From positions 37,780 to 101,779 of IMG/VR virus record IMGVR_UViG_3300042009_000020: a DNA stretch of 64,000 bases. One strand, written 5' to 3'. Below the pieces are notes generated by a model, which saw nothing but the letters and a program-made list of their open reading frames with translations, was not told where the DNA came from and did not search any database. Made by a program: the position numbers and the translations under genes. The DNA is from a virus. Its lineage: Duplodnaviria > Heunggongvirae > Uroviricota > Caudoviricetes. Of this stretch, positions 16,363 to 64,000 are shown piece after piece; position 1 is the first letter of the stretch, and every line of letters starts with the position of its first letter.

Positions 16363-19300
16363 ATGAGTACAATGGGTTTTGTTTCTACATTGAATGGAGC
16401 GGAAGATGCCGCTTCTCTTAACCTTGACTTCAAGAATCAAAAATATAAAGTGAGTGGTGTAAATAAGACGTTCAATGACTTGATCACGTTTACACGAGCT
16501 TCTGTTGGTGGTCGCTGGAATGCCAGTGGTGTTTATGAAGTGCTGCCGAATAACCAACCACGGTTTGATTATGACCCAATTACAAAGGTATTGAAAGGTT
16601 TACTTGTTGAGGAGCCTCGTACCAATTGGTTAACATATTCTAATGATTTAAGTAATGCTGCTTGGGTAAAAGTTAACTCAACACTAAACCCATCTTCCGC
16701 CGTATCGCCAGAGGGGTTACTGAATTCCGATATGGTAATAGAGAATACAGTCAGTACCAACCACGGGTTCAGCAGAGATATCACAGTGGTATCGGGTCTT
16801 ACATATACTGTTTCATTTTTCATCAAAGAGGCTGGACGCAACCTAGTAAGACTTCGACTCGGCCAAGCAGGTGGTGTTAGTGGTACAATCATAAGTGATG
16901 CTAACTTTGATCTGAATACAACCACATTTATTAGCGGTTTCTCTGCAACATCACCAACAATTGTAGATGTTGGTAGTGGTTGGAAAAGGATTTCATTAAC
17001 AGCAGTCGCCGCCAGCGCAACACTTGGGATTTCCGTGCTGTTCATAGATACAGGAACTAACGTATCATATGCTGGTAATGGTGTTTCTGGTGTTTCCTTC
17101 TATGGTATGTGTGTGGAATCTGGATCATTCTCAACGTCATACATCCCGACACCAACAATATTCACATCTCGTTCATCTACAGCAACATACTTTGATACAA
17201 ATGGTGTGATACAAACTGCCGATGTCAACGTAGCCCGTAGTAACGCTTACGGATATGATTCAACTGGGGTGATTAAGCCTATAGGTTTGCTGGTTGAAGC
17301 AGCCGCAACAAATATGCTTACCGCAAGTTCAAAGTACGATGACTCATCTTGGACTAAAGTAGCAAGTACCGTCGCGAGAGCTACAGAACCTGACCCAACT
17401 GGAACGCTCGATGCTTGGGCACTCAAACCATCAGCTGGTACGGGTGTGGTTGGTAGGATTTCAAAGCCATACTCTGCTGTATCTGGTACAACATACACGT
17501 TGAGTGTTTATGCTAAAAAGAAGGAGATTAGCTTCCTTAGATTACTAACGACAATTGACGGTACAGCAACTGTTCCACAAGCGCATTTTGATTTGAGTTC
17601 ATTGGTGACAGGTTCTGTTACAGCTTCAACGGCAATCGTTACTGGAGCTTCTAATGAGTGGGTAAGATGCAGTATTACATTCGTGGCACCAGTCACTGGT
17701 GCTGGTGTTGTATTCATTCAAGCGGCCACCAGCCTTACCACAGGAGCATACACAGGTGACGGCACACCCTCTGTCATCCTTTCATTAGCACAACTTGAAA
17801 CAGGAACGCTCAGTTCTTACATTCCAACCCCAGTAGTATTCACCAGTCGCGCATCAACTGCAACATATATCGGTTCAGATGGACTGCTGCAAACTGCTGC
17901 TGTAAACATTCCACGGATTGATTATGATCCTGTGAGTAAGATCAGCAAAGGACTATTGGTTGAAGCGGCGGCAACTAACCTTGCCACATATACAACAGCA
18001 CTACACAGGTCTTGGGCTGCTACTTATGTAGCTATTGTTCCTTATGATACAGTTTCCCCTGATGGTACACTCACTGGCGCCCGCCTTGTTGAAACAATAG
18101 CGGATAACGAGCATCGTCTTTACACTGCTAGTATTCCTGTTACATCAGGACTAACATACACTGGATCAATTTGGGTAAAAGCCGGATCGAGACGATATGC
18201 GTATCTTCACTTCTCCAACATTGGTTCATGGGGAACAGACACAACAATGTCTGCGAAGTTTGACACACTAACTGGTACAATTTTAGCAGCTGGTAGTGCT
18301 GTAATCGCTAAAGTAGAAACAGGACCGAACGGATGGTTCCGACTCATCATCACATCAACTGCTATATCTTCATCGCCATCCAGCGGAATGAGTATTGGTA
18401 TGTGCGACGATAGTGCCGCTGTATTGGGGCGTGACTACTATCTAGGTGATGGTAATAGTTTTATCCACATTTGGGGACCACAGTTTGAACAAGGATCATC
18501 TCCTACTTCTTACATTCCAAGTGTTGATACATTCTCCAGTCGCGCATCAACAGCTACATATATGGATGAAAATGGTGTACTGCAAACTGCATTATCTGGT
18601 GTGTCACGGGAAAACTCTTACGGGTATGATTCTACAGGTTCAATCAAACCTATTGGGTTGATGATTGAAGATTCTCGTACTAACATCTTAACTCACTCAA
18701 CTGTCCCTAACTTTGTGGCAACATGGTCAACAACTGGTGGTCTCGGTGTATTAGGGGGTCAACAGGCACCTGATGGTAGTTACACTGCTGTTGACATCAT
18801 TGAGGGTGGTTATACTGCTCAGCATGAAATCTTGCGGTTCTACACACCGACTTCTGGATTTAATTACACACACTCTGTTTACATCAAAAAGGTGAACAGG
18901 AAGTATGGTTACTTGTCAGCTTACTCATCTTCTGCGTCAAACACCTTCTTGGTTGATTTGGACACGGGTGATATTGTACAGAGTTGGACTTCTGGTTCCA
19001 TAGGAACAATGGCTCCGGTTCGTAAAGTTGAGCGAGCTGGTAATGGTTGGTGGAGACTTTCGTTAACACATACTGCCGTTAACGCAAACAACATCTACAT
19101 TATTGCTGGTGGCTCAGATTCATTAAGTCCGGGCTTGGTTAATACACGACCTTCATATTTGGGTAGTGGTATGGTGGGTGTAAGTATATGGGGACCACAG
19201 TGTGAGGTCGGTGCTGGGGTAACCACATACATTCCAACACCAGTAACATTCGCAAGTCGCGCTTCTACAGCAACATACTTTGATATCAATGGTGTATTGC

Positions 19301-20611: not shown

Positions 20612-21316
20612 ATGTCTAAACAAACTATTAACTTGGGTACTGCTCCAACTGGTGCTGGTGGTGATACGCCACGGTCTGCATTCACTAAAATGCAAGCAAA
20701 CTTTGATGAGGTTTATGTTGCACTTGGTGGTACAACTATTCCAGCATCTCTTCCTCTTACCAAGGGTGGTACTGGTGGTACAGATGCAGCTACTGCACGA
20801 ACTGGACTTGGGTTGGGAACTGTAGCTGTTGAAAGTACAGTTCCTTTAACGAAAGGTGGTACAGGAGGCACTACCGCTGCTGCTGCTCGTACTAACTTGG
20901 GTTTGAAGTCAGCAGCTGTTGCTGACATCTTGGGCACTGTCAGTCACTTCTTTGGTGTTCCTACAGGTTCAATTCTGGAAGCTGGTACTAACGCAAATGG
21001 TGATTATGTTAGGTTTGCTGATGGTACTCAAATTTGTGTGAAGTCAGGTACTACTGGTGCATTGAACCTGACTACAGTAGTGGGACCATGCTTCAACAAC
21101 AACGCTGACTTCCTCAACGCAGCAGCGTTCCCCATTGCATTCAGTGTGGCACCAAAAGTTACGCATTCATATAGACAATCAGCTTGGTATGGGTTTGCTC
21201 AAATTACGACTCTACCTACAACAGCTAACTGGCCGGGGTTGCGTGCGTTCTCAATTGGTTCTTCACCAAGTACCACAATCAACTATGACTTAATTGCAGT
21301 AGGGAGATGGTTCTAA
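20612..21316 (+). CDS. side tail fibre protein
   Basis: 234 aa; duplicated N-terminal motif PLTKGGTGGT.AA.ART.LGLG typical of phage tail fibre N-termini; strong AGGAGG SD. Confidence 0.7.
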   Translation: MSKQTINLGTAPTGAGGDTPRSAFTKMQANFDEVYVALGGTTIPASLPLTKGGTGGTDAATARTGLGLGTVAVESTVPLTKGGTGGTTAAAARTNLGLKSAAVADILGTVSHFFGVPTGSILEAGTNANGDYVRFADGTQICVKSGTTGALNLTTVVGPCFNNNADFLNAAAFPIAFSVAPKVTHSYRQSAWYGFAQITTLPTTANWPGLRAFSIGSSPSTTINYDLIAVGRWF

Positions 21317-36306: not shown

Positions 36307-38028
36307 ATGGAAATTGGTCTGCTAGGTGACGGTAAGACAGAATATTATAAAAACGATATTTGCTACGACTTGGAAACTTACCCTGACACTTTCACATTTG
36401 CCGCTGTCTTTGCTAGCGGTAAAGGAATGCGTGTTTATGAAATCAGTGACCGAAAGAATGATACTGAGGAAATGCTTGAGTTCATGCGTAATATTGCGAC
36501 AGGTGGATATCGGATGGTTGGTTTTAACAACTTAGGTTTCGATTACCCTGTTTTGCACTACATCCTTGAAAAGAGTAAGGCAGCACGCAAAGAAGGTAAA
36601 ACTTTGCAAATCACAGCATCTGAAATCTATAGTAAGGTTTGTAAGATGTTTGAACAGATGAAGTTCAACAAATTCGGAACCGCTGTTCGTTCTGATGAAG
36701 TAATGTTGAAGCAAGTTGACCTGTTCAAGATAAAACATTTCGATAATCACGCAAAGTCTACCTCTTTAAAAATGCTTGAATTCAACATGCGTTCTAAGAA
36801 CATTGAAGACTTGCCGTTTCCTGTTGGTATGCGTTTGAATGATGAACAGAGAGATGTTCTGATTGAATACAACAAACACGATGTTATGGAAACATTGAAA
36901 TTCTATTACAGGATTTTTGATGAAGTCAAAATGCGTCATGAACTGTCTGGTCAGTTCGGCTTTGACTGTACCAACTTCAATGATACGAAAATCGGCAAAG
37001 AGTTGTTCGTTAATCGTTTGGAATCTGCTAAGCCCGGTTGTTGCTATAAGATTGAGAAGAAAGGACCAAGGATGGTTCGGCAAATGCAACAAACAAAACG
37101 CAGTAGTATTAATCTTGGTGAGTGTGTTCTTCCGTACGTTCAATTCAATCGACCTGAGTTTAAAGCGATTCATCAATGGTTCCTTAATAAGACAATTGTT
37201 GAGACAAAAGGGTCACTCACAGATATTGAAGAACATGAGCTTGGTGATGTTGCTAAGTATGCAAAACTTCGTGTTAAAATGAAAAAGATGAATTGCCCTA
37301 TTGATGGGGCAAAGAATAAGCGCTATGTGCCAACCGAAGAACAAATCCTTGAGATGATGAAAGAACATCCCTTGGGTTGGGTTGAGGCTGTTGAACTCAA
37401 GAGTCCAAAGGGTGCCGCCAGCTATTGGTTCTGTTGGAATATTGCAGAAACCCTTAATGTTGTGATAAATGGATTCCAGTATGATTATGGTACTGGTGGA
37501 ATCCACGGTGCTAAACAAGGTGTCCATTCTAGCAATGACGAATACCAGATTTACAGCTATGATATCGCGTCAATGTACCCTAACGTCTCAATTCAGAACA
37601 AACTGTTCCCTGAGCATCTGGACATTCTGTTCTGTTCTGTTTATGAAGGGTTGTATCGTGAGCGTAAGAGTTATGATAAAAAAGATTCAAGAAACAAGGC
37701 GCTGAAATTGGCTCTAAACGGAACATATGGTGCATCTAATGACCAGTACAGTCCTATGTATGATCCTAAATTCACAATGAGTATCACAGTGAATGGTCAG
37801 TTGTTGTTGTCAATGTTGATTGATGATATGATTGAACAACTTGGTGCTGATGTGCTCATGTGCAACACTGATGGCTTTGAATTCATTGCTAAAAAATCTG
37901 ATGCTGACATGGTTGCACAAATCGTTAAATCATGGGAGAATGTGACCAAGCTTGAGATGGAAGGTGAGCTTTACAAGAAAATGCTCATCCGAGATGTAAA
38001 CAATTATCTTGCAATTAAACAGAAATAA
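36307..38028 (+). CDS. DNA polymerase, family B (3'-5' exo + pol motifs A/B/C), truncated after KxY-like motif
   Basis: ExoI YDLET; motif A YDIASMYPN, motif B KLALNGTYGA, motif C CNTDGF; ends 50 aa after motif C, immediately before a homing endonuclease gene. Confidence 0.65.
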   Translation: MEIGLLGDGKTEYYKNDICYDLETYPDTFTFAAVFASGKGMRVYEISDRKNDTEEMLEFMRNIATGGYRMVGFNNLGFDYPVLHYILEKSKAARKEGKTLQITASEIYSKVCKMFEQMKFNKFGTAVRSDEVMLKQVDLFKIKHFDNHAKSTSLKMLEFNMRSKNIEDLPFPVGMRLNDEQRDVLIEYNKHDVMETLKFYYRIFDEVKMRHELSGQFGFDCTNFNDTKIGKELFVNRLESAKPGCCYKIEKKGPRMVRQMQQTKRSSINLGECVLPYVQFNRPEFKAIHQWFLNKTIVETKGSLTDIEEHELGDVAKYAKLRVKMKKMNCPIDGAKNKRYVPTEEQILEMMKEHPLGWVEAVELKSPKGAASYWFCWNIAETLNVVINGFQYDYGTGGIHGAKQGVHSSNDEYQIYSYDIASMYPNVSIQNKLFPEHLDILFCSVYEGLYRERKSYDKKDSRNKALKLALNGTYGASNDQYSPMYDPKFTMSITVNGQLLLSMLIDDMIEQLGADVLMCNTDGFEFIAKKSDADMVAQIVKSWENVTKLEMEGELYKKMLIRDVNNYLAIKQK

Positions 38029-38042
38029 ACAATGAGGTTGTC

Positions 38043-38966
38043 ATGACGTTGACTAGAATGATTTACAGTGACAACCTCTTGTCACAAGACAAGATTGGTA
38101 TTTACAAGATCGAAAACCTTGTGAACGGTAAGGTCTATGTCGGTAAAACTGTTAATTTCCGAAGTCGCTACAACACCTACAACTCAGCATTCAGAACTAA
38201 TCGGACGACTCATATCAACCGATATCTAATGAGTTCTTTGTCAAAGTATGGCATTAGCAATTTCAAATTCAGCAAGCTTGAATCTTGCTCACTTTCTGAG
38301 ACTGGGGATCGAGAACTTTTCTGGATGGATCAGTTGGACTCGTGTTCTCGCAACGCTGGTTACAATCTGAGACGCGACAGTTCTACCGGCATGGAAACTC
38401 ATGAGGACACACGTGCTCACCTTTCTAGCAAAATTATCCAGCAATATGCAGATGGAAAGCGTGATAAAAGAAAGATCAGTGAATTCTTTAAAGGGTTTTG
38501 GTCGAATCCTGTTGTCAAAGACGAAATGGCGAAGCGTGTTGCTGAAGTTAACCGTTCTTATTTCATTCAGAGAGACAAGACCACATCTGACATTGTTTGT
38601 GTTTGGGATGGTATAAACCAGATCAAAGCAGCAAATCCACAATGGAAATGGCAGAATATTTATGCTGCGTGCAATGGAAGCAAACCATCATACCTTGGCT
38701 TCAAATGGGAACGCTCATCTGAAATCCCAGAAGGTTGTGAGCATCTTGTCCACAGAGGTGAGAATGTTCTGTTCAAGGATGTGGATAAAACACATTTACC
38801 TCGAACCAACTCACTGGTGTACACAGTGCATCATGGTGAATTTAAGGGTGAATACACTGGTGTTGAACTTTCTAAAATTTATGCGGCCATGTACAATGCA
38901 TTCTGCAAAGCAAAGTGTAATGAAATTTACTGGAAACGTGGTAAAACCAAAATAACTAGGGGATAA
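38043..38966 (+). CDS. GIY-YIG homing endonuclease
   Basis: GIYKIENLVNGKVYVGKT..R..Y motif; inserted between two polymerase-associated ORFs. Confidence 0.8.
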   Translation: MTLTRMIYSDNLLSQDKIGIYKIENLVNGKVYVGKTVNFRSRYNTYNSAFRTNRTTHINRYLMSSLSKYGISNFKFSKLESCSLSETGDRELFWMDQLDSCSRNAGYNLRRDSSTGMETHEDTRAHLSSKIIQQYADGKRDKRKISEFFKGFWSNPVVKDEMAKRVAEVNRSYFIQRDKTTSDIVCVWDGINQIKAANPQWKWQNIYAACNGSKPSYLGFKWERSSEIPEGCEHLVHRGENVLFKDVDKTHLPRTNSLVYTVHHGEFKGEYTGVELSKIYAAMYNAFCKAKCNEIYWKRGKTKITRG

Positions 38967-39520: not shown

Positions 39521-39548
39521 TTGACAGACGATCAGGATCACGTAGAAT
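39521..39548 (+). promoter_or_regulatory. promoter TTGACA-N16-TAGAAT
   Basis: consensus -35; ORF-track ATG 39521 lies inside it, real start at 39575. Confidence 0.6.
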
Positions 39549-54162: not shown

Positions 54163-54600
54163 ATGAGTGAATTGCGGCAGGAACGATTTGACCAACCACA
54201 TGAGTATGATCAATATTTGGGTCAGTTGGATATGGAGCTTCACCCACTATGGGAGAAAGCATGGATTGGTCAAGATCAAAAAGCATTTGAACAAATTCTA
54301 TTCGATATGGGTGCAGACTTGGCACACGGTTATGACTTCCGAGTTTGTCTACATCGTGCCCGTACTTCCAACAAGGTTGAATATGGTGTGCGTGTAGGCT
54401 TCCGTGAGCGTACTGACAAGTGGTGGACAGATAACATGATGGCTACTTCGGATATTGTGCGGAACACCCACAACAGCCTGAGAGCAACGGGTATGCGTCA
54501 ATGTCTGAATGAAGACAGCCCGCTAAATGAAGTAATGATGGAGCAGGCAGCCAAGTTCGCTGTCGTCGTAGATATTCACTGTAAGGAATCTGAAGTATGA
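54163..54600 (+). CDS. hypothetical protein
   Basis: 145 aa between ThyX-like gene and nrdB. Confidence 0.45.
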   Translation: MSELRQERFDQPHEYDQYLGQLDMELHPLWEKAWIGQDQKAFEQILFDMGADLAHGYDFRVCLHRARTSNKVEYGVRVGFRERTDKWWTDNMMATSDIVRNTHNSLRATGMRQCLNEDSPLNEVMMEQAAKFAVVVDIHCKESEV

Positions 54601-55604
54601 AGTATTTGAGTCAAATTGAAACACCAACGGATTCGTATGTAGCTCATTACCCTTGGGCTACCGAGATGGCAATCCAACAACAATCATTGTTCTGGCCTGC
54701 TGAAGAGTTGGGCGTAGAGGACGATGAACAAGACTTCCGCACCAACCTGACTGAAGGTGAACTTCACGGTATCCTGACAGCACAGTCGATCCTGACTCAA
54801 TATGAGTTGATGATTGGTGGTGATGAACTATGGGGTGGTAAGATTGCAAGGATGTTCCCACGTCCTGAGATTCAACGGATGTGTGCATGTTTCTCAAACG
54901 TAGAACTCGGAAGTCACGCACCATTCTATGATATTGGCAACAAGGTGCTAGGTAAGGCAACTGATGAGTTCTACACTCAATGGAAGTTAGACCCAATTCT
55001 GGCTGAACGGATAGCATTCATTAGTGAGTGTGCATCCAGTAATGACGCACTTGAAGTATCAGCAGCACTTGCCTTCTTTGAAGGTGCAATTCTGTTTTCC
55101 ATCTTTGGTTACTTCAAAGGTTTCAACAGTCGTGGTTACAACCTGATCCCTCACTTTGTCAGTGGTATTGACGGTAGTACAAAGGATGAGAACTTCCACT
55201 CCATTGCATCAGCCAACTTGTTTAACCAGTGTAAATCGGAACGTAAAGAACTTGGTAATCACAGCACTCGACGTGACAACTTACTGAACACCAAGATTGA
55301 TAAGATGACAATGGATGTTTACAACCATGAACTATTGATCATTGATAAGATGTTTGAGGTTGGTCATAACCGAGTTGTTAAGAAGCAAGAGTGTATTGAA
55401 TTCCTTGAAGATCGTCTGGACATTGTTCGCAATCGTCTTGGTCGTCCTCCGATGTTCAAGCGTGAAAAGCAGGGTGTGATTAGTGGTTGGTTCTACCAGC
55501 AACTGTCTACAGTGAAAGTTCCAGATTTCTTTGCTGCTACACAACTCCAGTACACACGTAATTGGTCGAAACCTAAGTTGGGCTTTAAGAAGGAGTTGGT
55601 TTAA
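54597..55604 (+). CDS. nrdB: ribonucleotide reductase class I small (beta) subunit
   Basis: ferritin-like R2 features (E..H iron ligands, FFEGAILFS helix), directly upstream of and overlapping the alpha subunit. Confidence 0.6.
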   Translation: MKYLSQIETPTDSYVAHYPWATEMAIQQQSLFWPAEELGVEDDEQDFRTNLTEGELHGILTAQSILTQYELMIGGDELWGGKIARMFPRPEIQRMCACFSNVELGSHAPFYDIGNKVLGKATDEFYTQWKLDPILAERIAFISECASSNDALEVSAALAFFEGAILFSIFGYFKGFNSRGYNLIPHFVSGIDGSTKDENFHSIASANLFNQCKSERKELGNHSTRRDNLLNTKIDKMTMDVYNHELLIIDKMFEVGHNRVVKKQECIEFLEDRLDIVRNRLGRPPMFKREKQGVISGWFYQQLSTVKVPDFFAATQLQYTRNWSKPKLGFKKELV

Positions 55605-57337
55605 TGTTGCTTGAAGATAATGTTGGTGAAATGCAAGAAGAAGAGTTGCAGATGTTTGAGCAATTCAGTAAAGAACGTAAGGAACTACAAGCGAAAGGGT
55701 ATCTACCTGACTGGTACACTACACAAGGTTGGCAGATGTTCAAAGAGAAGTATGCATATGAAGGTGAACAGGCTGTTCTAGGTCGTCACCGGAAAATTGC
55801 CCACACACTCGCCAAACATATGAAAGGTCGGGAAGCTGAATGGGAAGAGAAGTTCTTCCGTGAGCTTTGGGATGGTATCTTGTCACCATCGTCACCAGCA
55901 CTGGCTAACACCGGTACAACTCGCGGTATGATGGTTGCTTGCTCTGGTCAGGTGGTTGGTGACAGCGTAGAAGAATTCTATGATGGGATGAAAGAAACGG
56001 CTTTGCTGTCCAAGCAAGGGTTTGGTACAAGTGCAAACTTCAGTCATATCCGTCCTCGTGGGAGTTCGATTTCTACAGGCGGTAAGGCGAACGGTGCTGT
56101 CACTGTAATTGATGATTATTTCACAGCAGTATCCAAGGTTAGTCAAGGCGGTGCACGACGTGGCTCTATCGGTGCTTATCTGGATATTGAACACGGTGAC
56201 TGGGATGAGGCTTGTGACTCACTGGCTCATGACCCCAATGGTAAGAACTACGGATGGATTATCAAAGACACGTTCATTGAGAAGCTGAAGAACGATGATC
56301 CTGACGCCAATCGACGTTGGATCAAAGCTGTCTATACAAAGCTGATTACTGGTAAAGGTTATATCTTTAAGGTTGACACAGCTAACCGCCATCGTCCACA
56401 GATGTACAAAGACTGGAACCTGTTCATTGAGGCGTCCAACCTGTGCAGTGAAATCATGCTTCACAGTAGTGAGATGTTGACTTACTCGTGTATTTTGGCT
56501 AGTCAGAACTTGGTACACTGGGATGTCATGCCTGAGCGTGAATCAGTGTTCATTGCTACGGTGTTCCTTGACTGTCTGTGTTCTGAGTTCATTGAGAAGT
56601 CAGCGGGTATCGTTGGACTTGAGAAGGTAAGAGAGTTTACCATTCGTGGTCGTGCAATTGGTCTAGGTGTTTTGGGATTCCATACATACTTGCAATCCAA
56701 GATGATCCCATACATTAGTTTGGAAGCTCAGTTCCTAAGCACACGAATAGCTAAACACTTGCATGATGAGTCATTGCGTGCGAGTCAATGGTTGGCTCAA
56801 GAGTACGGGAGTCCTATGTGGTGTGCAGGTTATGGTCTTCGCAACACTCATAGGACAGCTTATGCACCAACCAAGACCACCAGTCTGCTTATGGGAGGGA
56901 TTAGTGAATCATGGTTCCCTGATCCGGGTATGATCTTTGATGCTGGTTCTAGTGTGGGTGAGCTTCGTCGTATCCCACCAATGTTCTACCAGTTTATGAA
57001 AGACAAAGGTGTGTACAATGAAGAAACAATCATGGACATCATCAACAATCTTGGCTCTATTCAACATGTGGATTGGGCGACAGATGATGAAAAGCTTGTG
57101 TTCCTCAATGCTTTTGAGATGGATCAATTGATTCTTCTGCGTCATGCGAGCCAACGACAACCGTGGACATGTCAAGGACAGAGTTTGAATTTCTATGTTC
57201 CAGAGGATGGAAGCGAGGATTTGATTGCAACATTGTTAACCTTGCTGCTGTTGGATGAGAACATTCTCAGTCAGTACTATATTTATAGCAGAAGCGGTGT
57301 CGTGGTAAAAGACGAATGTATCGCCTGCGCAGCCTAA
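55604..57337 (+). CDS. nrdA: ribonucleotide reductase large (alpha) subunit, compact (no ATP-cone)
   Basis: PALANTGT, GFGTSANFSHIRPRGSSISTGGKANG, active-site SNLCSEI, C-terminal CIAC redox pair; 577 aa. Confidence 0.8.
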   Translation: MLLEDNVGEMQEEELQMFEQFSKERKELQAKGYLPDWYTTQGWQMFKEKYAYEGEQAVLGRHRKIAHTLAKHMKGREAEWEEKFFRELWDGILSPSSPALANTGTTRGMMVACSGQVVGDSVEEFYDGMKETALLSKQGFGTSANFSHIRPRGSSISTGGKANGAVTVIDDYFTAVSKVSQGGARRGSIGAYLDIEHGDWDEACDSLAHDPNGKNYGWIIKDTFIEKLKNDDPDANRRWIKAVYTKLITGKGYIFKVDTANRHRPQMYKDWNLFIEASNLCSEIMLHSSEMLTYSCILASQNLVHWDVMPERESVFIATVFLDCLCSEFIEKSAGIVGLEKVREFTIRGRAIGLGVLGFHTYLQSKMIPYISLEAQFLSTRIAKHLHDESLRASQWLAQEYGSPMWCAGYGLRNTHRTAYAPTKTTSLLMGGISESWFPDPGMIFDAGSSVGELRRIPPMFYQFMKDKGVYNEETIMDIINNLGSIQHVDWATDDEKLVFLNAFEMDQLILLRHASQRQPWTCQGQSLNFYVPEDGSEDLIATLLTLLLLDENILSQYYIYSRSGVVVKDECIACAA

Positions 57338-57341
57338 ACTA

Positions 57342-57373
57342 TATAGCCCCTTAATTGGGGCTATTTTTATTTA
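57342..57373 (+). terminator. intrinsic terminator
   Basis: ATAGCCCC..TTAA..GGGGCTAT stem followed by TTTTTATTT. Confidence 0.8.
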
Positions 57374-57383
57374 AGGAGATTTT

Positions 57384-58016
57384 ATGATAGAGGTTTGGAA
57401 GGATATCATTGGGTATGAGGGTTTCTATAAGATAAGTAATTTTGGAAATGTCATCTCGTGTACAAGAGTCGTTGCCGATACAAGACTCGGCTCTAAAACA
57501 CTCAGACAGCGAAACCTCAGATTGACGGTTGACAGTGCAGGGTACGCAAAGGTTGGACTGTACAAGGATTCCATCAAAGAGGTGTGGAAGGTTCACCGTC
57601 TCGTTGCCTTACATTTCTGTGACAAATCTGAAGGTTGCGATATTGTAAACCATCTAGATAACGACACTCAAAATAACAGCAGCACAAATCTTGAATGGAC
57701 AACATCACTAGGAAACAACCAACACATGGTGAGGCAAGGTCGTAACAGAAATGCCCGTGGTTCTGACTGTTCGTTCTCTGAACTGACCGACGACAATGTG
57801 AGAGACATCCGAAGGTTGTGTAGCCTTAAAGTACCACAAACAGAAATCGCTGACAAGTACAACATCTCACAACAACAGGTTTCCAAGATCAATCTGAGAC
57901 TCAGATGGGCACATCTGGAGCTTGACAACAGGCGACGAACGGTAGTAGACATACCTCACCAACTCACCTATCATTTGAATCACACGGAAGGGGGAAAGGC
58001 AAAGAAGCCAAGCTGA
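57384..58016 (+). CDS. HNH homing endonuclease (NUMOD4 + HNH_3 + C-terminal HTH)
   Basis: WKDIIGYEGFYKISNFGNV (NUMOD4), VHRLVALHF...NHLDNDTQNN..NLEW (HNH_3), sigma-r4-like HTH TEIADKYNISQQQVSKI. Confidence 0.75.
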   Translation: MIEVWKDIIGYEGFYKISNFGNVISCTRVVADTRLGSKTLRQRNLRLTVDSAGYAKVGLYKDSIKEVWKVHRLVALHFCDKSEGCDIVNHLDNDTQNNSSTNLEWTTSLGNNQHMVRQGRNRNARGSDCSFSELTDDNVRDIRRLCSLKVPQTEIADKYNISQQQVSKINLRLRWAHLELDNRRRTVVDIPHQLTYHLNHTEGGKAKKPS

Positions 58017-58068
58017 CGAGTAATTGCGAAAGCGTAATTTCTTACAACCATTTCTAACGGTGAAAAAC

Positions 58069-58272
58069 ATGAGCAAAAACAAGGTGGTGAGTCGAGTCAG
58101 TGCAGTTGTGGGTAGTGACATTCGTCACGTGTACACAGCGGACGGGGAACAACTGTTGGGGATGATCCTGAAAATGGGTCGAGGTAAATACCGAGTACTG
58201 CGTCAAGATGGTAAAGAACGCACCAAGGACACGCTCAGTGAGGCGTTCAAAACCATTCGTAGGGCCAACTAA
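58069..58272 (+). CDS. hypothetical basic protein
   Basis: 67 aa from ATG 58069. Confidence 0.4.
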   Translation: MSKNKVVSRVSAVVGSDIRHVYTADGEQLLGMILKMGRGKYRVLRQDGKERTKDTLSEAFKTIRRAN

Positions 58273-58294
58273 GACCAACGTAATAGGAGTATGC

Positions 58295-58576
58295 ATGAAC
58301 GAAGCGTATGAAGTCGAGCTTTCTCAGATTAAGACAACCTTCTCTGCTTCACCAATTGACCTGATAATGGGAGTGGAGAAACAAACCACTCTCAAGGTCG
58401 AGAGCACTGGAGAGATGCAAGGGTTTATGGATGTCGAGTGGCAAGTGGTTTATACTCGTGTGTTGGTGGATGACCGTTGGTACTTCCTTCCACAAGACTT
58501 GTATGATGAGATTGACGACGAGTATGGAGATGTGATAGGGGAAAAGCTGTGGTCGCTCACACAGACGATTAACTGA
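58295..58576 (+). CDS. hypothetical acidic protein
   Basis: AGGAG SD 6 nt before ATG 58295. Confidence 0.45.
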   Translation: MNEAYEVELSQIKTTFSASPIDLIMGVEKQTTLKVESTGEMQGFMDVEWQVVYTRVLVDDRWYFLPQDLYDEIDDEYGDVIGEKLWSLTQTIN

Positions 58577-58580
58577 CAGA

Positions 58581-58610
58581 GAGCCCCACCATCGTGTGGG
58601 GCTTTTTCAC
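58581..58610 (+). terminator. intrinsic terminator
   Basis: AGCCCCAC..CATCGT..GTGGGGCT stem followed by TTTTTC. Confidence 0.8.
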
Positions 58611-58625
58611 ATCTGAAGAAAAGGG

Positions 58626-58653
58626 TTGACAGGCCGTTTGGAGCTGGTAGAAT
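58626..58653 (+). promoter_or_regulatory. promoter TTGACA-N16-TAGAAT
   Basis: immediately after terminator. Confidence 0.6.
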
Positions 58654-58679
58654 GGGCACATCTAACAAGGAGACACACC

Positions 58680-58943
58680 ATGCGCCTCAACAAAAACAAT
58701 GAAGAATTGAACAAGAAATGTGAACTTCTCATGAGCTTGGGGTTTGAAATCCAGCACCGTGACTGTGATGTGTCCTTTGAGACATTGAACGTTGACTTCG
58801 TTGGATTCGACTTCTCAGCAACAGCACCAGATGTGCAGTCTATCATTTACACAGCACTGAATCATGTGTACAATCTTGGTCTGCAACAGGGTAAGTCAAT
58901 CGTACAGCAAGATATCAAGGTTGTGTTGGGGATCGGAGAGTGA
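58680..58943 (+). CDS. hypothetical protein
   Basis: AAGGAGA SD; 87 aa. Confidence 0.45.
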   Translation: MRLNKNNEELNKKCELLMSLGFEIQHRDCDVSFETLNVDFVGFDFSATAPDVQSIIYTALNHVYNLGLQQGKSIVQQDIKVVLGIGE

Positions 58944-58944
58944 A

Positions 58945-59082
58945 ATGAGAAACTATGTAGCCAAGCACATGAACAGCTTCAATCGTGCAAGTGTTGTACC
59001 TGATAAGCGTGACAAACATCTGGACGATGTGTATGAGCAAGAGTTGCAAGAAGAACTCAAGGAAAAGGATGAGAAAGAGTGA
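58945..59082 (+). CDS. hypothetical 45-aa charged peptide
   Basis: GGAGAG SD. Confidence 0.3.
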   Translation: MRNYVAKHMNSFNRASVVPDKRDKHLDDVYEQELQEELKEKDEKE

Positions 59083-59273
59083 TTGACTTCCTAAGTGAAC
59101 ACGGGTACTCTGTGTTGGTGATCTTCTGCCTAGTCACCATCTATGTGATAGCATATAAGGTCGTTGAGGAAGGACCACCAACCGCTAAAGAAAATCAAGC
59201 TATACTGGACAGTCTTGAGCATCGTAAATCATTCTTGTTGAACACAACTGAAAGCAAATGGGGAACTGAGTAA
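59079..59273 (+). CDS. small membrane protein
   Basis: 64 aa, one TMD. Confidence 0.4.
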   Translation: MIDFLSEHGYSVLVIFCLVTIYVIAYKVVEEGPPTAKENQAILDSLEHRKSFLLNTTESKWGTE

Positions 59274-59461
59274 TGGCTGTACTGGGTTATATCTGTTACA
59301 TGGTGTTGACGTTGTATGTTAGTCTGATCACCTCGGCTGTCTTTGTATGGCCTTCTGACAAGATGATCAATGGTGAGCGTGTGTTCATGTTGGTGCTGTT
59401 CATTCTGTTCTGGACAGGTGCTGCACACTTCTGGCCTTTTGAACCAATGGTACTGAAATGA
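59273..59461 (+). CDS. small membrane protein
   Basis: 62 aa, two TMDs. Confidence 0.4.
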   Translation: MAVLGYICYMVLTLYVSLITSAVFVWPSDKMINGERVFMLVLFILFWTGAAHFWPFEPMVLK

Positions 59462-59655
59462 CCACTGACACAGACCGTCTTGAGTTCCTTTTTGGTGATA
59501 ACGAAACGCAGGGTTACTACACCGTCCGATCCAAACCTGACTACTCTGAATGGATTGTATGGGATCAATCAAATGGATTGGAGTTGATTGGTAAAGGTGC
59601 CACAATGCGTGAAGTAATCGATCATGCAATGGAGAAAGTGAAATGTCAAAAGTAA
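59458..59655 (+). CDS. hypothetical protein
   Basis: 65 aa. Confidence 0.4.
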   Translation: MTTDTDRLEFLFGDNETQGYYTVRSKPDYSEWIVWDQSNGLELIGKGATMREVIDHAMEKVKCQK

Positions 59656-60044
59656 TCATGGGTGAACTTGGTATCAATCGCAGTAGTAATGGATTCATCT
59701 ACATTCGAATTGAAGATAGTAACAGTCGTGCCAAGTTTGTTGAGCTAAAGCTTACGTGTGAGCAATTTGCTGAAGCGGTAACCGGTCTGCACACATGTGA
59801 TGTTGAGATGACTGTGAGTCACCTTGACCGTGTTGGTAAGCGGCGTGTACGTGAGAGCCGCAGTGTTGTATGTCCACTGGACAGCTGGAAGCGTGAGGTA
59901 CAACAAGCATGGCTTGTCGAGAACTGTCAAGAGGAAGGTTGGATTCTTGATGCATTCCTTGGTAGTCAAACTTCAACGAAATCGGTTGACGGTGGAACAC
60001 GTCTCAATTATGCTGTATTCAAATACATCGATGAGGTAAAGTAA
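59643..60044 (+). CDS. hypothetical protein
   Basis: 133 aa. Confidence 0.45.
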   Translation: MSKVIMGELGINRSSNGFIYIRIEDSNSRAKFVELKLTCEQFAEAVTGLHTCDVEMTVSHLDRVGKRRVRESRSVVCPLDSWKREVQQAWLVENCQEEGWILDAFLGSQTSTKSVDGGTRLNYAVFKYIDEVK

Positions 60045-60045
60045 C

Positions 60046-60447
60046 ATGGCTGCAAATAGGGAACTGGCAGAAGCACGTGGGTTGGATGAAGACGCAATTC
60101 GAATGATTGATTATACCCATGCTCAGTTAGAATGGTTGATTGACAACTTGGCGTTAGACCAAGACATCGACTATATTGCTGATGTGGTTCGTCACAATGA
60201 GTTTGAACTACAACGTCTTTGGGGTTTCACCCAAGACAGTCGATACCACACATGGGGTAGAAGGCTCTCCAAGCGTGTCAGAGAGCTTGCTTATCTCGGG
60301 GCTGTGTATCGGTGTAAAGAGAGCGGTGAAAGCCTTACAATCGACAAAGAAGCGCTTGAGGGTGGTGCTTTGTTTGGTGTAGGTCATGGCTTCATCGACT
60401 TCGGTGGAGTTGTTCGTATTGTTGGACCTTTGGAGAGAATCAAATGA
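60046..60447 (+). CDS. hypothetical protein
   Basis: 133 aa. Confidence 0.45.
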   Translation: MAANRELAEARGLDEDAIRMIDYTHAQLEWLIDNLALDQDIDYIADVVRHNEFELQRLWGFTQDSRYHTWGRRLSKRVRELAYLGAVYRCKESGESLTIDKEALEGGALFGVGHGFIDFGGVVRIVGPLERIK

Positions 60448-60710
60448 TTAAGACAACCGTTGAACATGTACCTGTTAAAGCTGTGTTTGAACTTGGTGAA
60501 CTTGTTGAACTTGACAAAGCACAATTTGAGGACGGTAAGGGTTACATTGTGTTAATCACCAAAGTCATGAGTAATACAAACTTGTTTGGTGGTGTAGTTG
60601 TGCAAAGCGACGAAGATGATGGTGATATCTTTGTTGGTAACCACAGCCTTAACTTTACACGTCACTCATTCACCAAGTTTGTTGGTAAACTTACAATGGT
60701 GAGTTCATGA
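60444..60710 (+). CDS. hypothetical protein
   Basis: 88 aa. Confidence 0.45.
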   Translation: MIKTTVEHVPVKAVFELGELVELDKAQFEDGKGYIVLITKVMSNTNLFGGVVVQSDEDDGDIFVGNHSLNFTRHSFTKFVGKLTMVSS

Positions 60711-60849
60711 AGCGATCAAAACGATGGCAGTTCCTCTGGCTTGAGTATGAGCGTGTAGGGTTTGTTGAACACCTTACTCTCTTTGGTTTGACAATCTACA
60801 GGCGGTGTGGTAGTGTCTGTCAGCTGTTCGGATATGAGTGGATACAGAA

Positions 60850-61017
60850 ATGAACAAAGAAGATATTGTTGAGTTCTTAAAGAACAACATGACGATTAGC
60901 ATTGAACGTTGGACTGGTTACTACCAGTACCCTACACTTGAGGTGAAGTTGATGATTTGTGGTGAACTGATCAGTGCTGCTGAGTGTACTATCTACGACG
61001 GTGAGTTCAATGAATAA
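60850..61017 (+). CDS. hypothetical 55-aa protein
   Basis: ATG 60850 after a 140-nt gap. Confidence 0.3.
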   Translation: MNKEDIVEFLKNNMTISIERWTGYYQYPTLEVKLMICGELISAAECTIYDGEFNE

Positions 61018-61285
61018 AGTATTTGACATCATTGAAAGTCTGTACCCTGACTTCAAAGAGTATGCAGACAATGCACAGTTCCACTATTGGATGGAGTATG
61101 CCTGTGAGCTTGATGAAGTAGTTAACGTCGTATACATTGAAGACGATAAGCTAATTGCTTATCTGAACAAACGTATGTCCATGTTATCCAGTAGTAAACC
61201 AGAGCATCATGCTTGTACTGATGTAGCGTCAACGTTGGAAGAAAGTATCCCATCTAAATTTAAAGGAGTATTTACACATGAATGA
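61010..61285 (+). CDS. hypothetical protein
   Basis: in-frame ATG of ORF-track 60974 ORF overlapping upstream stop. Confidence 0.4.
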   Translation: MNKVFDIIESLYPDFKEYADNAQFHYWMEYACELDEVVNVVYIEDDKLIAYLNKRMSMLSSSKPEHHACTDVASTLEESIPSKFKGVFTHE

Positions 61286-61511
61286 AGTAACAGTAGAAGA
61301 ACAAGCAGCTCAAAGCTTCCTTGTCCAGATTAACTTCAAGAGTGGTGGTCGTATTCAGGCTTGGTTTGATAAACTGGACACCGAGGTGAGTAACGGTGCA
61401 GTTACTTCACTTACCTACAAGCTGAGCGAGTGTCAGAAGACAGCAATCGCCTTTATTAGTGTCACTGATATTGAATCGATTGTTCGACTTGATTATAAAG
61501 ACATTCAGTAG
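61278..61511 (+). CDS. hypothetical protein
   Basis: 77 aa. Confidence 0.4.
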   Translation: MNEVTVEEQAAQSFLVQINFKSGGRIQAWFDKLDTEVSNGAVTSLTYKLSECQKTAIAFISVTDIESIVRLDYKDIQ

Positions 61512-61521
61512 TTTTCAGTAG

Positions 61522-61550
61522 TTGACACACTAAGTTAGTAGCTGTACAAT
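61522..61550 (+). promoter_or_regulatory. promoter TTGACA-N17-TACAAT
   Basis: consensus -35, 17-nt spacer. Confidence 0.55.
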
Positions 61551-61762
61551 CACTACATTAAGTAAGCAATCAAATACAAGTAAGGGAATAAAATGAATAA
61601 TGTAACCCGCTTCGAGAATACCAAACGCAAATTGGACTGGAAACAAGAGGAAGCTTTGCGCACCGGTAAGAAGCGTGATCAAAAACGTCGTGATGATCGT
61701 ATTGTTGGTCGGGAAGTTAAGTTGATTGGTGAAGAAGAATAAGATATAAGTAATAACGAGAA

Positions 61763-61790
61763 GAGCCCACCATGAGTGGGCTTTCTGCTG
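61763..61790 (+). terminator. probable intrinsic terminator
   Basis: GAGCCCAC..CATGA..GTGGGCT stem followed by TTCTGCTG. Confidence 0.5.
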
Positions 61791-62370
61791 TCTGGGATTT
61801 GATTACAAACTAGGATTTCATGAGGATTTGAACGTCTCTATTTTTCTCCTAAAAATCCCCTACACCCCTCTTTTCAATATTGGGTTTTGGGAATTCGTTT
61901 TTGGGAAAATCCAAGAAATCGCTCGGGGAATTTAATCAATAACGGCGGGCGAATGATAACCATTCGTGTTTGATATTGGGAATACGACTTATTCGTATCA
62001 GGCAATGAGAACGCTCCTCATTCATCACTATTCTGAAAAAGTGACATTACCATCGGGCACACTTCGGCCTTCGGAATCCGACGGCATTTGTGAATAGTAC
62101 AGACCAGCCTAGCAGAAGTCAACAATTATTTTAGGTATGATTTATGCAATAGCAACAACCGTGCCAATCTAGAATGTCGTCCACCCTCCCCACCTTGTAC
62201 TCCAGTGTCTGCGCTTTCGCGTTTCGTTCCTGCTATATGTATTGTAGCAAAGCTGTAGAACAAAGCAAGCGATAATCAAAATTCTTTTTCAATTGACAGC
62301 ACCCACTTGGTTGTGCTATTCGCACGCGCCCGGTTCATCTATATTGCAGGCTGAAAAGAATTTGAAAAAG
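61791..62370. other. ~580-bp non-coding structured region (candidate origin / packaging site / genome-end region)
   Basis: no ORF >30 aa with RBS; GGATTTG x3, TTTTGGGA x2, ATATTGGG x2 short direct repeats and several 6-7 bp hairpins (CGAATG..CATTCG, ATACGA..TCGTAT, AATGAG..CTCATT). Confidence 0.45.
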
Positions 62371-62374
62371 ATTG

Positions 62375-62402
62375 TTGACGCCTTCTCTAAATGCTGTAAA
62401 CT
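62375..62402 (+). promoter_or_regulatory. early promoter copy 1 (TTGACG-CCTTCTCTAAA..-TAAACT)
   Basis: member of 5-copy conserved promoter family. Confidence 0.6.
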
Positions 62403-62443
62403 TCACCATATCGAAAGCAAACAAGCTTTAAGGAATCCGAAAC

Positions 62444-62713
62444 ATGAAACCAATGACCAACAATCGCGCCTTACTTTCTGGTTTGAACAAGGGTTATATT
62501 GACGAAGTGGCGAAAGACTTAAACCGTTACCAGACTATCGAAAGAGATAGTGAATGGGTATGCGTAGACGGGGCTGCAATGCGTAAGAAGTCCTTTCTAG
62601 TCAAGCACTCTAAGGGTATGGCACGCTGGCACGTAGAACAGCGCAACGGTGACGTTAAAGGCGTTGGTGTGATTCATGAATGTGACGTAAACGCACCTTA
62701 TAGAACAGCCTGA
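62444..62713 (+). CDS. early small protein A
   Basis: 89 aa downstream of promoter copy 1. Confidence 0.45.
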   Translation: MKPMTNNRALLSGLNKGYIDEVAKDLNRYQTIERDSEWVCVDGAAMRKKSFLVKHSKGMARWHVEQRNGDVKGVGVIHECDVNAPYRTA

Positions 62714-62722
62714 AAATAAAAC

Positions 62723-62750
62723 TTGACGCCTTTTCTAAAGCTGCTAGAAT
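62723..62750 (+). promoter_or_regulatory. early promoter copy 2 (TTGACG-N16-TAGAAT)
   Basis: conserved CCTTTTCTAAAG spacer core. Confidence 0.65.
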
Positions 62751-62785
62751 TGGCGTTACAAACAAACATTAAAGGATTACAGAAT

Positions 62786-63136
62786 ATGAAAGCTCTTGAA
62801 GTTGCACACGTTGACACTTGCATCTCCTGCTATTGGTCCGGGCATCATCTGGCACACGTTCAAATTCCTGTATACAAAGGGATGCATATTTCAGAAGTTA
62901 AACGCCAGTTGCATTCAGAGCTTGCTGAAGGGGCTGTGATGGGTAACAATCCTTTGACAAGGGATGATAGCGGTGACGATGGTGACAAGTGGTACAAGAA
63001 GGCTCATGCCGCTGTGAACCGCATTCAGCCCGGCATCAAGGGTAAACGTCGCATGTTTGAAAATCTGGATGAAATGCCGGACGATTATGATGGTGAATCT
63101 GTTTATGCTTACTTTGTCTTTGTTGAAAAGGAATAA
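62786..63136 (+). CDS. early small protein B
   Basis: ATG 62786 (ORF-track start 62723 lies inside promoter); 116 aa, Cys/His N-terminus. Confidence 0.45.
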   Translation: MKALEVAHVDTCISCYWSGHHLAHVQIPVYKGMHISEVKRQLHSELAEGAVMGNNPLTRDDSGDDGDKWYKKAHAAVNRIQPGIKGKRRMFENLDEMPDDYDGESVYAYFVFVEKE

Positions 63137-63151
63137 AAGCTAAATAAACTG

Positions 63152-63179
63152 TTGACGCCTTTTCTGAATACTGTAGACT
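63152..63179 (+). promoter_or_regulatory. early promoter copy 3 (TTGACG-N16-TAGACT)
   Basis: conserved spacer core. Confidence 0.6.
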
Positions 63180-63213
63180 AGGCGTTACACACAAGCAAAC
63201 AGGAATCACCAGA

Positions 63214-63420
63214 ATGAAACGTCCAGAAGGTAAGCCGGTAGAAATTCGATTTTGCACCTACGCAAATGCAACCGGTCCAAAGTTTGAAGTGTTGCACGCC
63301 TACAAAATTCCTGTTAGCAATATGAGTAAGGAAGACTGTATAAAGTTTCGAGATGAATTGTATAAAAACCCACACTGTGGAACTTGCACAATTTATCTCG
63401 ACAATGGTTGTCATATCTAA
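63214..63420 (+). CDS. early small protein C (Cys-rich)
   Basis: 68 aa, C..C..HCGTC..GC. Confidence 0.45.
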   Translation: MKRPEGKPVEIRFCTYANATGPKFEVLHAYKIPVSNMSKEDCIKFRDELYKNPHCGTCTIYLDNGCHI

Positions 63421-63433
63421 CTGAAAATAATGC

Positions 63434-63461
63434 TTGTCACCTTCTCTAAATAGTGTAAGAT
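63434..63461 (+). promoter_or_regulatory. early promoter copy 4 (TTGTCA-N16-TAAGAT)
   Basis: conserved spacer core CCTTCTCTAAATAGTG. Confidence 0.55.
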
Positions 63462-63508
63462 AGTGACAAGCAAGGCAAAACGCCTTGTAACCTGATGGAG
63501 TGTTCACC

Positions 63509-63751
63509 ATGCAAAGCATTAAAACCTTAGCACGCAAGGCATACGTTAACCGCTACGCCTTCGCAAGTGTCTCAATTGACAAGCAAGGCGACATGCTGGG
63601 TCACTGGGGCGAAACGCGTCACGGGCTAGATCCTGTACGGCTGGGGAACATTGTAGACTGTTGCACGACGGTTAACGAGCGTCGCACCGGCGTTCTGTTC
63701 TATAACCGTGATTTCATTGTCTATACGTTTGCTATGGATGTTTTAAAATAA
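63509..63751 (+). CDS. early small protein D
   Basis: ATG 63509 with GGAG SD. Confidence 0.45.
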   Translation: MQSIKTLARKAYVNRYAFASVSIDKQGDMLGHWGETRHGLDPVRLGNIVDCCTTVNERRTGVLFYNRDFIVYTFAMDVLK

Positions 63752-63754
63752 AGG

Positions 63755-63782
63755 TTGACACCTTCTCTAAAGGTGCTAGAAT
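63755..63782 (+). promoter_or_regulatory. early promoter copy 5 (TTGACA-N16-TAGAAT)
   Basis: conserved spacer core; followed by GGGAGGC-aaaca-GCCTCCC hairpin at 63793-63811 in the leader. Confidence 0.65.
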
Positions 63783-63841
63783 TGCCAATAGAAGGGAGGC
63801 AAACAGCCTCCCATACCAAACAACGAAAGAGAGTTAACATT

Positions 63842-63991
63842 ATGTCCTTAGATCGTTTTGTTGAACTGTATCTCGACTATCGCAATAACTTCTTGACAGT
63901 TGAAGCGTTCGCGGCTCACTATGGGTTGTCGTACAAAACAGCTGAAGCGATTGTCGTTTGTGGTCGCACCATCTCAAATCTAGAGGAATAA
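63842..63991 (+). CDS. early small protein E
   Basis: 49 aa from ATG 63842 (ORF-track start 63755 lies in promoter). Confidence 0.4.
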   Translation: MSLDRFVELYLDYRNNFLTVEAFAAHYGLSYKTAEAIVVCGRTISNLEE

Positions 63992-64000
63992 ACCATGTTA

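Follow-up and report, generated by a model that had tools for sequence, protein, structure and literature searches.

Promoters sharing an invariant spacer box form a predicted early-gene array in a phiPMW-like Pseudomonas phage

Host-promoter clusters at the start of the early region are already known from phages T7, T5, T4 and LUZ19, and gene cassettes made of ORFans and bounded by promoters are known from the promoter-early stem-loop (PeSL) systems. The strong early promoters of T5 were reportedly described by Gentz and Bujard in 1985. T4 early promoters combine an upstream (UP) element, a -35 element, a TGn motif and a -10 element with consensus regions beyond these standard elements (Hinton 2010, PMC2988021), and in LUZ19 five strong host promoters, P002-P006, have been mapped at the left end (PMC10914365). 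PeSL cassettes have been found in the T4-type phages RB49/phi1, PST and nt-1 (Arbiol et al. 2010, PMC2839356; Comeau et al. 2014, PMC4122927). About 30 sigma-70 promoters of the form TTGACA...TAGAAT/TATAAT have been predicted in phiPMW (Magill et al. 2017, PMC5587285), a 103-kb Plaisancevirus in which 198 of 229 open reading frames (ORFs) have no ascribed function. Here we describe an array of closely similar promoters, P1 to P5, at the right end of a 64,000-nucleotide stretch of viral DNA (positions 37,780 to 101,779 of the IMG/VR record IMGVR_UViG_3300042009_000020), called the window below. They probably open, right after a non-coding leader, an early region rich in ORFans, as strong promoters of the host sigma-70 (RpoD) type, and they are likely the first members of a longer rightward array. 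What is distinctive about them is a well-defined, unusually invariant box in the spacer.

The first-pass annotation of the window had placed five promoters at 62375, 62723, 63152, 63434 and 63755, and all of them are found there (Table 1). Their alignment contains invariant columns in the A-rich upstream part, in the -35, in a spacer core CCTT.TCT.AA and in the -10. As in sigma-70 promoters, the -35 hexamers are close to TTGACA (three TTGACG, one TTGACA, one TTGTCA), the -10 hexamers are TAGAAT (twice), TAGACT, TAAACT and TAAGAT, and the spacer is 16 bp in all five. An enhancer element is present as well: across 55 members of the promoter family, (T)GAAAATAA is a conserved feature at -12 to -4 from the -35, a position not included in the search pattern. 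The 17-mer TTGACRCCTTYTCTRAA matches only P1-P5 on both strands of the 64 kb, with zero or one mismatch each, where a rough estimate under uniform composition predicts ~0.003 sites per window at up to one mismatch. A position matrix, which is not circular because it was built from related phages only, ranks P1-P5 as the top five sites in the window with 38-52 bits; the next best sites reach 17 and 14, with the 99.99th percentile at 5. P2 and P3 share extra similarity in their 5' untranslated regions (5'UTRs), and the orthologue of P1 with its 5'UTR is conserved in the related contigs L169-L174 and in L204.

The same promoters recur in the relatives of this phage. The window DNA polymerase is 68% identical to those of the Pseudomonas putida phages phiPMW, the closest sequenced relative, and vB_PpS_SYP. 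No long nucleotide match to the window was found among deposited phage genomes. The Logan contig L202 (10.4 kb) is 100% identical to positions 54259-64000 and extends 705 bp beyond them, and a protein identical to that of ORF5, the gene behind P5, is on record in a 107,314-bp JGI contig. We take the phage to be a phiPMW-like Pseudomonas siphophage of roughly 107 kb. For comparison we used seven phiPMW-like IMG/VR contigs of ~100 kb, anchored on the 49-aa gene that lies just 5' of the terminator preceding the leader, and took 10 kb downstream of it. Past the leader, this DNA holds 8-10 promoter copies in six of the relatives and four in L175, all on the coding strand except for one reverse-strand match with three mismatches in L171. 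The first copy stands 0.8-1.4 kb past the anchor gene (~3.9 kb in L175) and the copies run to the end of the DNA taken; the window end cuts a longer array. In phiPMW itself, a terminator and a gap of ~600 bp are likewise followed by the first promoter and a homologue of ORF4. Outside phiPMW-like contigs of ~100 kb, matches in IMG/VR are single and scattered. The family thus defined spans at least eight genomes whose proteins share only 53-85% identity, and its consensus reads (T)GAAAATAAAGC-TTGAC-NNN-TTyTCTAAA-NNN-TG-TAGAAT; GGGCGTCAAGAA and a hairpin often come next.

The box, TTyTCTAAA, lies between the -35 and the -10 at a fixed distance of 5 bp from the latter. In 55 non-identical copies, collected with a pattern in which every specified position could mismatch equally, T8, T9, T11, C12, T13, A14 and A15 (numbered from the first -35 base) are conserved at 96-100%, compared with 78% for the A and 82% for the C of TTGAC, and the three bases on each side of the box vary freely. 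Across the eight genomes, 84 promoters built in this way were found with a matrix blind to the spacer, and the box occurs in 58 of the 74 inside arrays versus 0 of the 10 outside (hypergeometric p ~2e-6). Since none of these similarly built outside promoters has it, the box is not required by the promoter design; by this comparison it is a stable tag of the array promoter class. The box-less outside set includes sites 39521 and 58626 of the window and the relatives' orthologues of 58626. These two window sites (39521-39548 and 58626-58653) have the same UP element, TTGACA, 16-bp spacing, TAGAAT and G-rich downstream design without TCTAAA; they define a second promoter class, whose timing may differ. 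The box keeps its register with the -10, not with the -35: in phage phiPto-bp6g the spacer is one base shorter and TCTAAA-N5-TAGAAT is retained. At box position 10, a purine is present in seven of the eight L169 copies versus one of 47 elsewhere (Fisher p = 3e-7), a concerted change within one genome. The conserved spacer had been read at first pass as a hint of a common regulator-binding site; the spacer signal itself is real, and because it is class-specific and conserved over eight diverged genomes, such a site is a reasonable idea.

Together with the -10, the box forms an imperfect dyad, TCTA-N7-TAGA, around the best symmetry centre (0.49 versus 0.19-0.37). The pairs of TCTA(AA)-N3-(TG)TAGA are present in 71-100% of copies, the right arm being the -10 itself. 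There is also an outer repeat, TTGAC/GTCAA, which in P4 becomes a perfect TTGTCAC/GTGACAA pair that is not general. As a selected structure, the inverted repeat of -35 TTGACGCC and start region GGCGTCAA was set aside, being marginal (p = 0.02-0.07) and present in about one-third of copies. By-eye comparison also led us to reject AlgU/sigma-E-like, PvdS-like, LexA, Fur and FleQ readings of the box, whose upstream or partner elements do not fit. In L169-L175 the box is accompanied by a winged-helix-looking family of 105 aa (F4), for which no family match was obtained and which was not detected in phiPMW.

As first proposed, ORFs of 49-116 aa follow the five promoters at a short distance, starting 34-59 nt past the -10, and each of the five is credible as a gene. 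For ORF2 and ORF3 no family was found, and the families of ORF1, ORF4 and ORF5 are of unknown function. The seven IMG/VR relatives lack ORF1 and ORF2. ORF4 is homologous to phiPMW gp21, the first phiPMW gene past the leader. Among the eight genomes, ORF5 occurs in the window phage and L173 only. Its confident structural model (predicted local distance difference test score, 97) suggests a three-helix bundle compatible with a helix-turn-helix protein, with no family assignable; matches of this fold to solved helix-turn-helix proteins all have E > 0.2, and ORF5 was dropped as an identifiable regulator. The ORF3 protein is 97% identical to its copy in L173 with only ~78% identity in DNA, which indicates strong purifying selection and rules out recent horizontal transfer. 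Two features of the first-pass description did not survive. Several of the ORFs had been called Cys-rich; this applies to ORF3 only, in which just two Cys are conserved, and a Cys4 zinc-binding role is ruled out because three of the five Cys vary among 11 homologues. Nor does each promoter have its own gene. P5 heads an operon of at least three ORFs: in L202, ORF5 and then ORFs of 55 and 128 aa come after it, and the 705 bp beyond the window contain no other promoter of the family. Because promoters of the relatives serve 1-6 genes each, at a density of ~1 per kb versus 1 per 0.33 kb here, the one-promoter-one-gene pattern of the window is unusually dense. The genes behind the array promoters are natural candidates for host-takeover and anti-defence screens.

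Gene content behind the promoters changes readily. In the eight genomes, conservation of P1 and its leader extends to the start codon, and the gene behind P1 is different in almost each of them. ORF3 has four promoter/leader contexts (P3 in the window, those of L204 and L203, and a P1-type leader in L173), and in L203 it precedes ORF2, the reverse of the window order. The homologue of ORF1 in phiPto-bp6g stands behind a promoter of the same family, hairpin included. As the comparison of relatives shows, promoter units mark the boundaries at which genes have been swapped, lost or reordered.

About half of the promoters are followed by a hairpin at the start of the predicted transcript. The GGGAGGC/GCCTCCC hairpin noted at first pass after the last copy is real (-15.3 kcal/mol, z = -5.8). 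Hairpins of at least 5 bp and -5 kcal/mol or lower start 9-14 nt past the -10 in 28 of the 55 family copies, versus 2.25 +/- 1.5 in shuffled leaders. In the window, P4 also has one and P2 and P3 have none; the weak stem-loop of P1 is not significant alone, and P1 orthologues keep its sequence. Stem sequences vary (GGGAGGC/GCCTCCC, GAGAGAGG/CCTCTCTC, AGGAGAGAA/TTCTCTCCT and GAGGCGC/GCGCTTC), so that it is structure, not sequence, that is kept. Having no U-tract, the hairpins are not terminators in the sense direction. In E. coli, a stem-loop a few nucleotides from the 5' end reportedly protects against RNase E-dependent decay, a result attributed to Emory, Bouvet and Belasco in 1992. By analogy, protection of the mRNA 5' end from decay is our best guess for the role of the hairpins.

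The locus thus resembles several known systems without being identical to any. Like PeSL cassettes, it has a repeated sigma-70-like early promoter with AT-rich upstream DNA, an adjacent stem-loop and small ORFans in a plastic region, and the insertions, deletions and replacements that distinguish related phages have their junctions at the promoter repeats. However, the PeSL stem-loop is a terminator 5' of the promoter, whereas here it lies 3' of the -10 in the 5'UTR, without a U-tract and in 28 of 55 copies; PeSL phages are T4-type myophages, not Pseudomonas siphophages, and nothing like the invariant spacer box has been described for PeSLs. With the T4 early promoters, which serve immediate takeover of the polymerase, the array shares many copies of a host sigma-70 promoter, the UP element and an extra consensus. 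The sequence is different, TGn is in the minority, no injected Alt-like modifier is known, and here the additional consensus takes the form of a discrete 9-bp box in the spacer, limited to one promoter class. The likeness to T7 A1-A3 and T5 drawn by the first-pass annotation holds at the level of strategy, also for LUZ19: a cluster of strong host-polymerase promoters, here predicted from sequence, opens the early region on one strand, to be read without phage factors. It does not extend to the layout, as T7 and LUZ19 promoters are stacked 5' of the first gene while these are interleaved with genes over at least 10 kb. The leader and the small-gene region are syntenic with those of phiPMW, for which no shared spacer motif, 5' hairpins or cassette shuffling were reported (PMC5587285).

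Table 1. Coordinates of the array promoters, their genes and the associated leader and stem-loops in the window
Feature	Coordinates	Strand	Description
Terminator stem-loop	61764..61782	+	AGCCCACcatGAGTGGGCT then TTTCTGCTGTCT; closes the upstream nucleotide-metabolism and small-gene operon
Non-coding leader	61783..62349	.	No conserved ORF; ~70-78% conserved in relatives; syntenic with phiPMW 8117-8720
P1	62350..62402	+	A-rich UP; -35 TTGACG 62375-62380; spacer CCTTCTCTAAATGCTG; -10 TAAACT 62397-62402; 49.3 bits
P1 weak stem-loop	62414..62429	+	AAAGC-aaacaa-GCTTT; -4 kcal/mol, z = -1.3
ORF1	62444..62713	+	89 aa; DUF7449 / phrog_5201, function unknown
P2	62698..62750	+	UP CTGAAAATAAAAC; -35 TTGACG 62723-62728; spacer CCTTTTCTAAAGCTGC with TGn; -10 TAGAAT 62745-62750; 52.3 bits
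ORF2	62786..63136	+	116 aa; no family; homologues: phiK7A1 gp158 (C-terminal half) and an L203 ORF
P3	63127..63179	+	UP; -35 TTGACG 63152-63157; spacer CCTTTTCTGAATACTG; -10 TAGACT 63174-63179; 44.7 bits
ORF3	63214..63420	+	68 aa; no family; 5 Cys
P4	63409..63461	+	UP CTGAAAATAATGC; -35 TTGTCA 63434-63439; spacer CCTTCTCTAAATAGTG; -10 TAAGAT 63456-63461; 38.3 bits
P4 stem-loop	63470..63488	+	GCAAGGC-aaaac-GCCTTGT; whole-leader minimum free energy -13.4 kcal/mol, z = -2.4
ORF4	63509..63751 (alternative GTG 63500)	+	80 aa; phrog_17916 (function unknown)
P5	63730..63782	+	UP TTTTAAAATAAAGG; -35 TTGACA 63755-63760; spacer CCTTCTCTAAAGGTGC with TGn; -10 TAGAAT 63777-63782; 50.9 bits
P5 stem-loop	63794..63812	+	GGGAGGC-aaaca-GCCTCCC; starts 12 nt past the -10
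ORF5	63842..63991	+	49 aa; phrog_26669 (function unknown); 18 homologues
Start codon of next ORF	63996..64000	+	Cut at the window end; 55 aa in L202

We propose that unmodified host polymerase would bind each copy once the DNA is accessible, contacting the A-rich UP element through the C-terminal domains of its alpha subunits and TTGAC through sigma region 4, with the 16-bp spacer and the TAGAAT-like -10 completing the site. The hairpin scan found no terminator 5' of P2-P5, and as there is no convincing terminator between the units, the transcripts would be nested and transcription of downstream genes cumulative. From P4, P5 and about half of the family, the RNA would begin with a stable stem-loop, most likely as a protection of its 5' end. 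Our tentative view, held at somewhat less than even odds, is that the box and the -10 (TCTA-N7-TAGA) are bound by a regulator through which the whole array is switched as a class, for example in early shut-off. A bolder version seems unlikely to us: TCTAAA-N5-TAGAAT would be the site for a phage or hijacked host factor that switches ~10-20 early promoters, and the promoter-hairpin units would be portable gene-capture platforms, integron-like and integrase-free, in a phage clade that lacks a recognisable transcription factor. Several observations weigh against parts of the proposal. Promoter activity, strength and timing are read from the DNA sequence, and the term early from gene content and analogy. 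Three of the five -10 hexamers deviate (TAAACT, TAGACT and TAAGAT), and a canonical TGn is present in P2 and P5 only. As for the regulator site, the box is degenerate in phiPMW (e.g., TTGACGCCTATTTTGAATGCTGTAGAAT at 12958). Covariation of the palindrome is not seen (p = 0.38 for the inner arms, 0.02-0.07 for the outer arms), and the cognate protein of a regulator site was not found, the helix-turn-helix-like ORF5 being confined to the window phage and L173. As for the hairpins, a column-wise consensus fold recovers only four pairs, three of them with compensatory changes; this fold is weak, as stems and loops are too variable in length for column alignment, and the per-sequence test is the informative one.

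The main alternative, although we consider it unlikely, is that the box is additional promoter information that optimises binding or opening by host polymerase. The added consensus regions of the very strong T4 early promoters offer a precedent for which this was proposed (PMC2988021), and the retained register with the -10 in phiPto-bp6g, the presence of the box in P1, which must fire first on naked DNA, and the missing regulator all agree with it. However, promoters of the same design outside the array do without the box in all eight genomes, the phiPMW versions are degenerate, and the concerted L169 change at position 10 would be unexpected with a conserved host polymerase as partner. An improbable alternative is that the promoters are not immediate-early and that a phage factor reads the box instead of or with the -35, like the MotA box of T4 middle promoters. 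Conservation is indeed higher in the box than in the 3' half of the -35, and members with a poor -35 (TGTACT, TTAACA or TTGTAT) retain both box and -10. Yet most copies combine a good TTGAC with a UP element, the very first promoter past the leader is of the box type, and the box, at ~-26 to -18, sits within the spacer rather than in place of the -35; among the ORFs that were scanned, none looked MotA-like, AsiA-like or sigma-like.

Recombination could also account for most of the near-identity, with the units acting as PeSL-like homology blocks, kept uniform by gene conversion and used as cassette crossover points, and with promoter strength secondary; we give this explanation, too, a minor chance. 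It draws on the hypervariable slot after P1, the four contexts of ORF3 and its permutation with ORF2, the genome-specific variant at box position 10, the ORF1 homologue behind the same promoter type in phiPto-bp6g and the PeSL precedent (PMC2839356, PMC4122927). But at unselected positions the promoters are not significantly more alike within a genome than between genomes (0.471 vs 0.461, p = 0.12), so that global within-genome homogenisation was rejected and copying of whole units is not the main cause of the conservation; the freely varying flanks of an invariant box argue for selection on the box itself, and no crossover product was observed directly. That the five copies are a recent local tandem duplication without shared function, or ordinary promoters alike by chance, is barely credible. 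The extra similarity of the P2 and P3 5'UTRs would suit it, but the intervening ORFs are unrelated to one another, the number of sites expected by chance is very low, and the recurrence of the family, box included, across such diverged genomes already contradicts it.

From a practical perspective, the array gives a precise, testable definition of an early regulon in a poorly understood clade of ~100-kb Pseudomonas phages (Plaisancevirus-like), and with the promoter matrix the extent of the early region can be set in any relative. The class-specific box is a clean handle for finding the factor behind the early-to-middle switch of this phage, which appears to use host polymerase throughout. For Pseudomonas, the promoters and 5' hairpins are candidates for compact parts giving strong expression, and the shuffled cassettes extend the PeSL concept of gene exchange at promoter boundaries to phages not of the T4 type.

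About 590 bp with no conserved ORF separate the terminator from the array, and this leader has features of its own. The terminator was also recovered in the hairpin scan (reported on the - strand), and a syntenic terminator is annotated in phiPMW at 8078-8117. The leader contains GGGAAWW repeats, a sigma-54-like box and a block in common with Otagovirus phages. The sigma-54 (RpoN) -24/-12 consensus TGGCAYG-N4-TTGCW has one exact match in the window (62151-62166, - strand; ~0.008 estimated by chance), with GG and GC one helical turn apart. It points leftward, away from the array, and ~25 nt downstream on the same strand lies a sigma-70-like promoter, TTGACT-17-TACTAT (62122-62094). Exact or one-mismatch boxes occupy the syntenic leader position in phiPMW (8528), L174 (11137) and L175 (10859), and the box is also found in phiK7A1; at the syntenic place in phiPsa374 it is absent. 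Exact matches number four in 30 kb of phiPMW (8513-8528(-), 8649-8664(+), 18329-18344(-) and 20999-21014(-)), and further sigma-54-like matches are found in L174 (11122-11137(-)) and phiK7A1 (753-768(-), 920-935(-) and 1082-1097(-)). A sigma-54-like promoter has been documented in Pseudomonas phage YuA (PMC10914365). No enhancer-binding AAA+ activator was seen among the ORFs scanned, in a scan that was not exhaustive, and the facing pairs of boxes in phiPMW and phiK7A1 could instead be a palindromic protein site. A candidate promoter P0 (62293-62322), ~80 bp 5' of P1, consists of TTGACA, 16-18 bp and GCTATT/TATTCG; its -10 is poor and its activity doubtful. Its TTGACA and a downstream box are conserved in L170, L172 and Pectobacterium phage Bobbio, and phiPMW has its exact + strand sigma-54 box at the corresponding place.

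Two leader blocks, 62171-62236 and 62315-62341 (CCACCCTCCCCACCTTGTACTCCAGTGTCTG..TTCCTGCTAT and GCTATTCGCACGCGCCCGGTTCATCTA), are 86-92% identical to non-coding DNA of Otagovirus myophages, namely phiPsa374 (1201-1266 and ~1322-1350) and Bobbio (1201-1294), which otherwise have no nucleotide similarity to the window. Because in the Otagoviruses, too, the blocks lie ahead of the first promoter in a region of small genes, the leader architecture is common to phage families. The blocks have no Rfam match. A host origin was rejected: a search for GAGACAAACAGGG-N15-25-TGGCAYG in 185,579 bacterial species genomes returned 22 scattered matches in unrelated taxa, about the number expected by chance (an estimate), and none in Pseudomonas. 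Iteron-like repeats are present at 61880-61990 (GGGAAWW, four to five copies) and likewise at 8200-8290 of phiPMW; phiPsa374 (930-1010) and Bobbio have TCCyCGrACAGATTTTTACA repeats. An origin, a packaging site and a regulator array are all conceivable roles for the leader repeats. Copies of the leader block (GAGACAAACAGGGAG...) were also observed inside the arrays, on the + strand of L170 (18297-18357), L171 (15303-15363) and L172 (17530-17590), so that this leader element is repeated in the early region; each is followed by degenerate sigma-54-like boxes and lies just 5' of two family promoters 33 bp apart.

Elsewhere, the window codes for a lambda-like tail module of a tailed phage (a tape-measure protein, a gpJ-like central fibre of 3080 aa and a 1394-aa tail protein) and for lysozyme, RNA ligase, UvrD-like helicase, primase-helicase, DNA polymerase and ribonucleotide reductase. 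A tRNA search of the window returned none, and Rfam nothing credible, either in the whole window at gathering thresholds or in 61500-64000 at permissive E-values. The gpJ-like fibre (5511-14753) is unusually long for a siphophage; it has long internal coiled-coil/repeat matches, with 15 stretches matching phrog_2589, and a C-terminal tail-tip fibre domain. Finally, homing-endonuclease-type genes lie at 57384-58016 and 38043-38966 (NUMOD4/HNH_3 and GIY-YIG, respectively), both adjoining ribonucleotide reductase or DNA polymerase genes, as typical mobile insertions.

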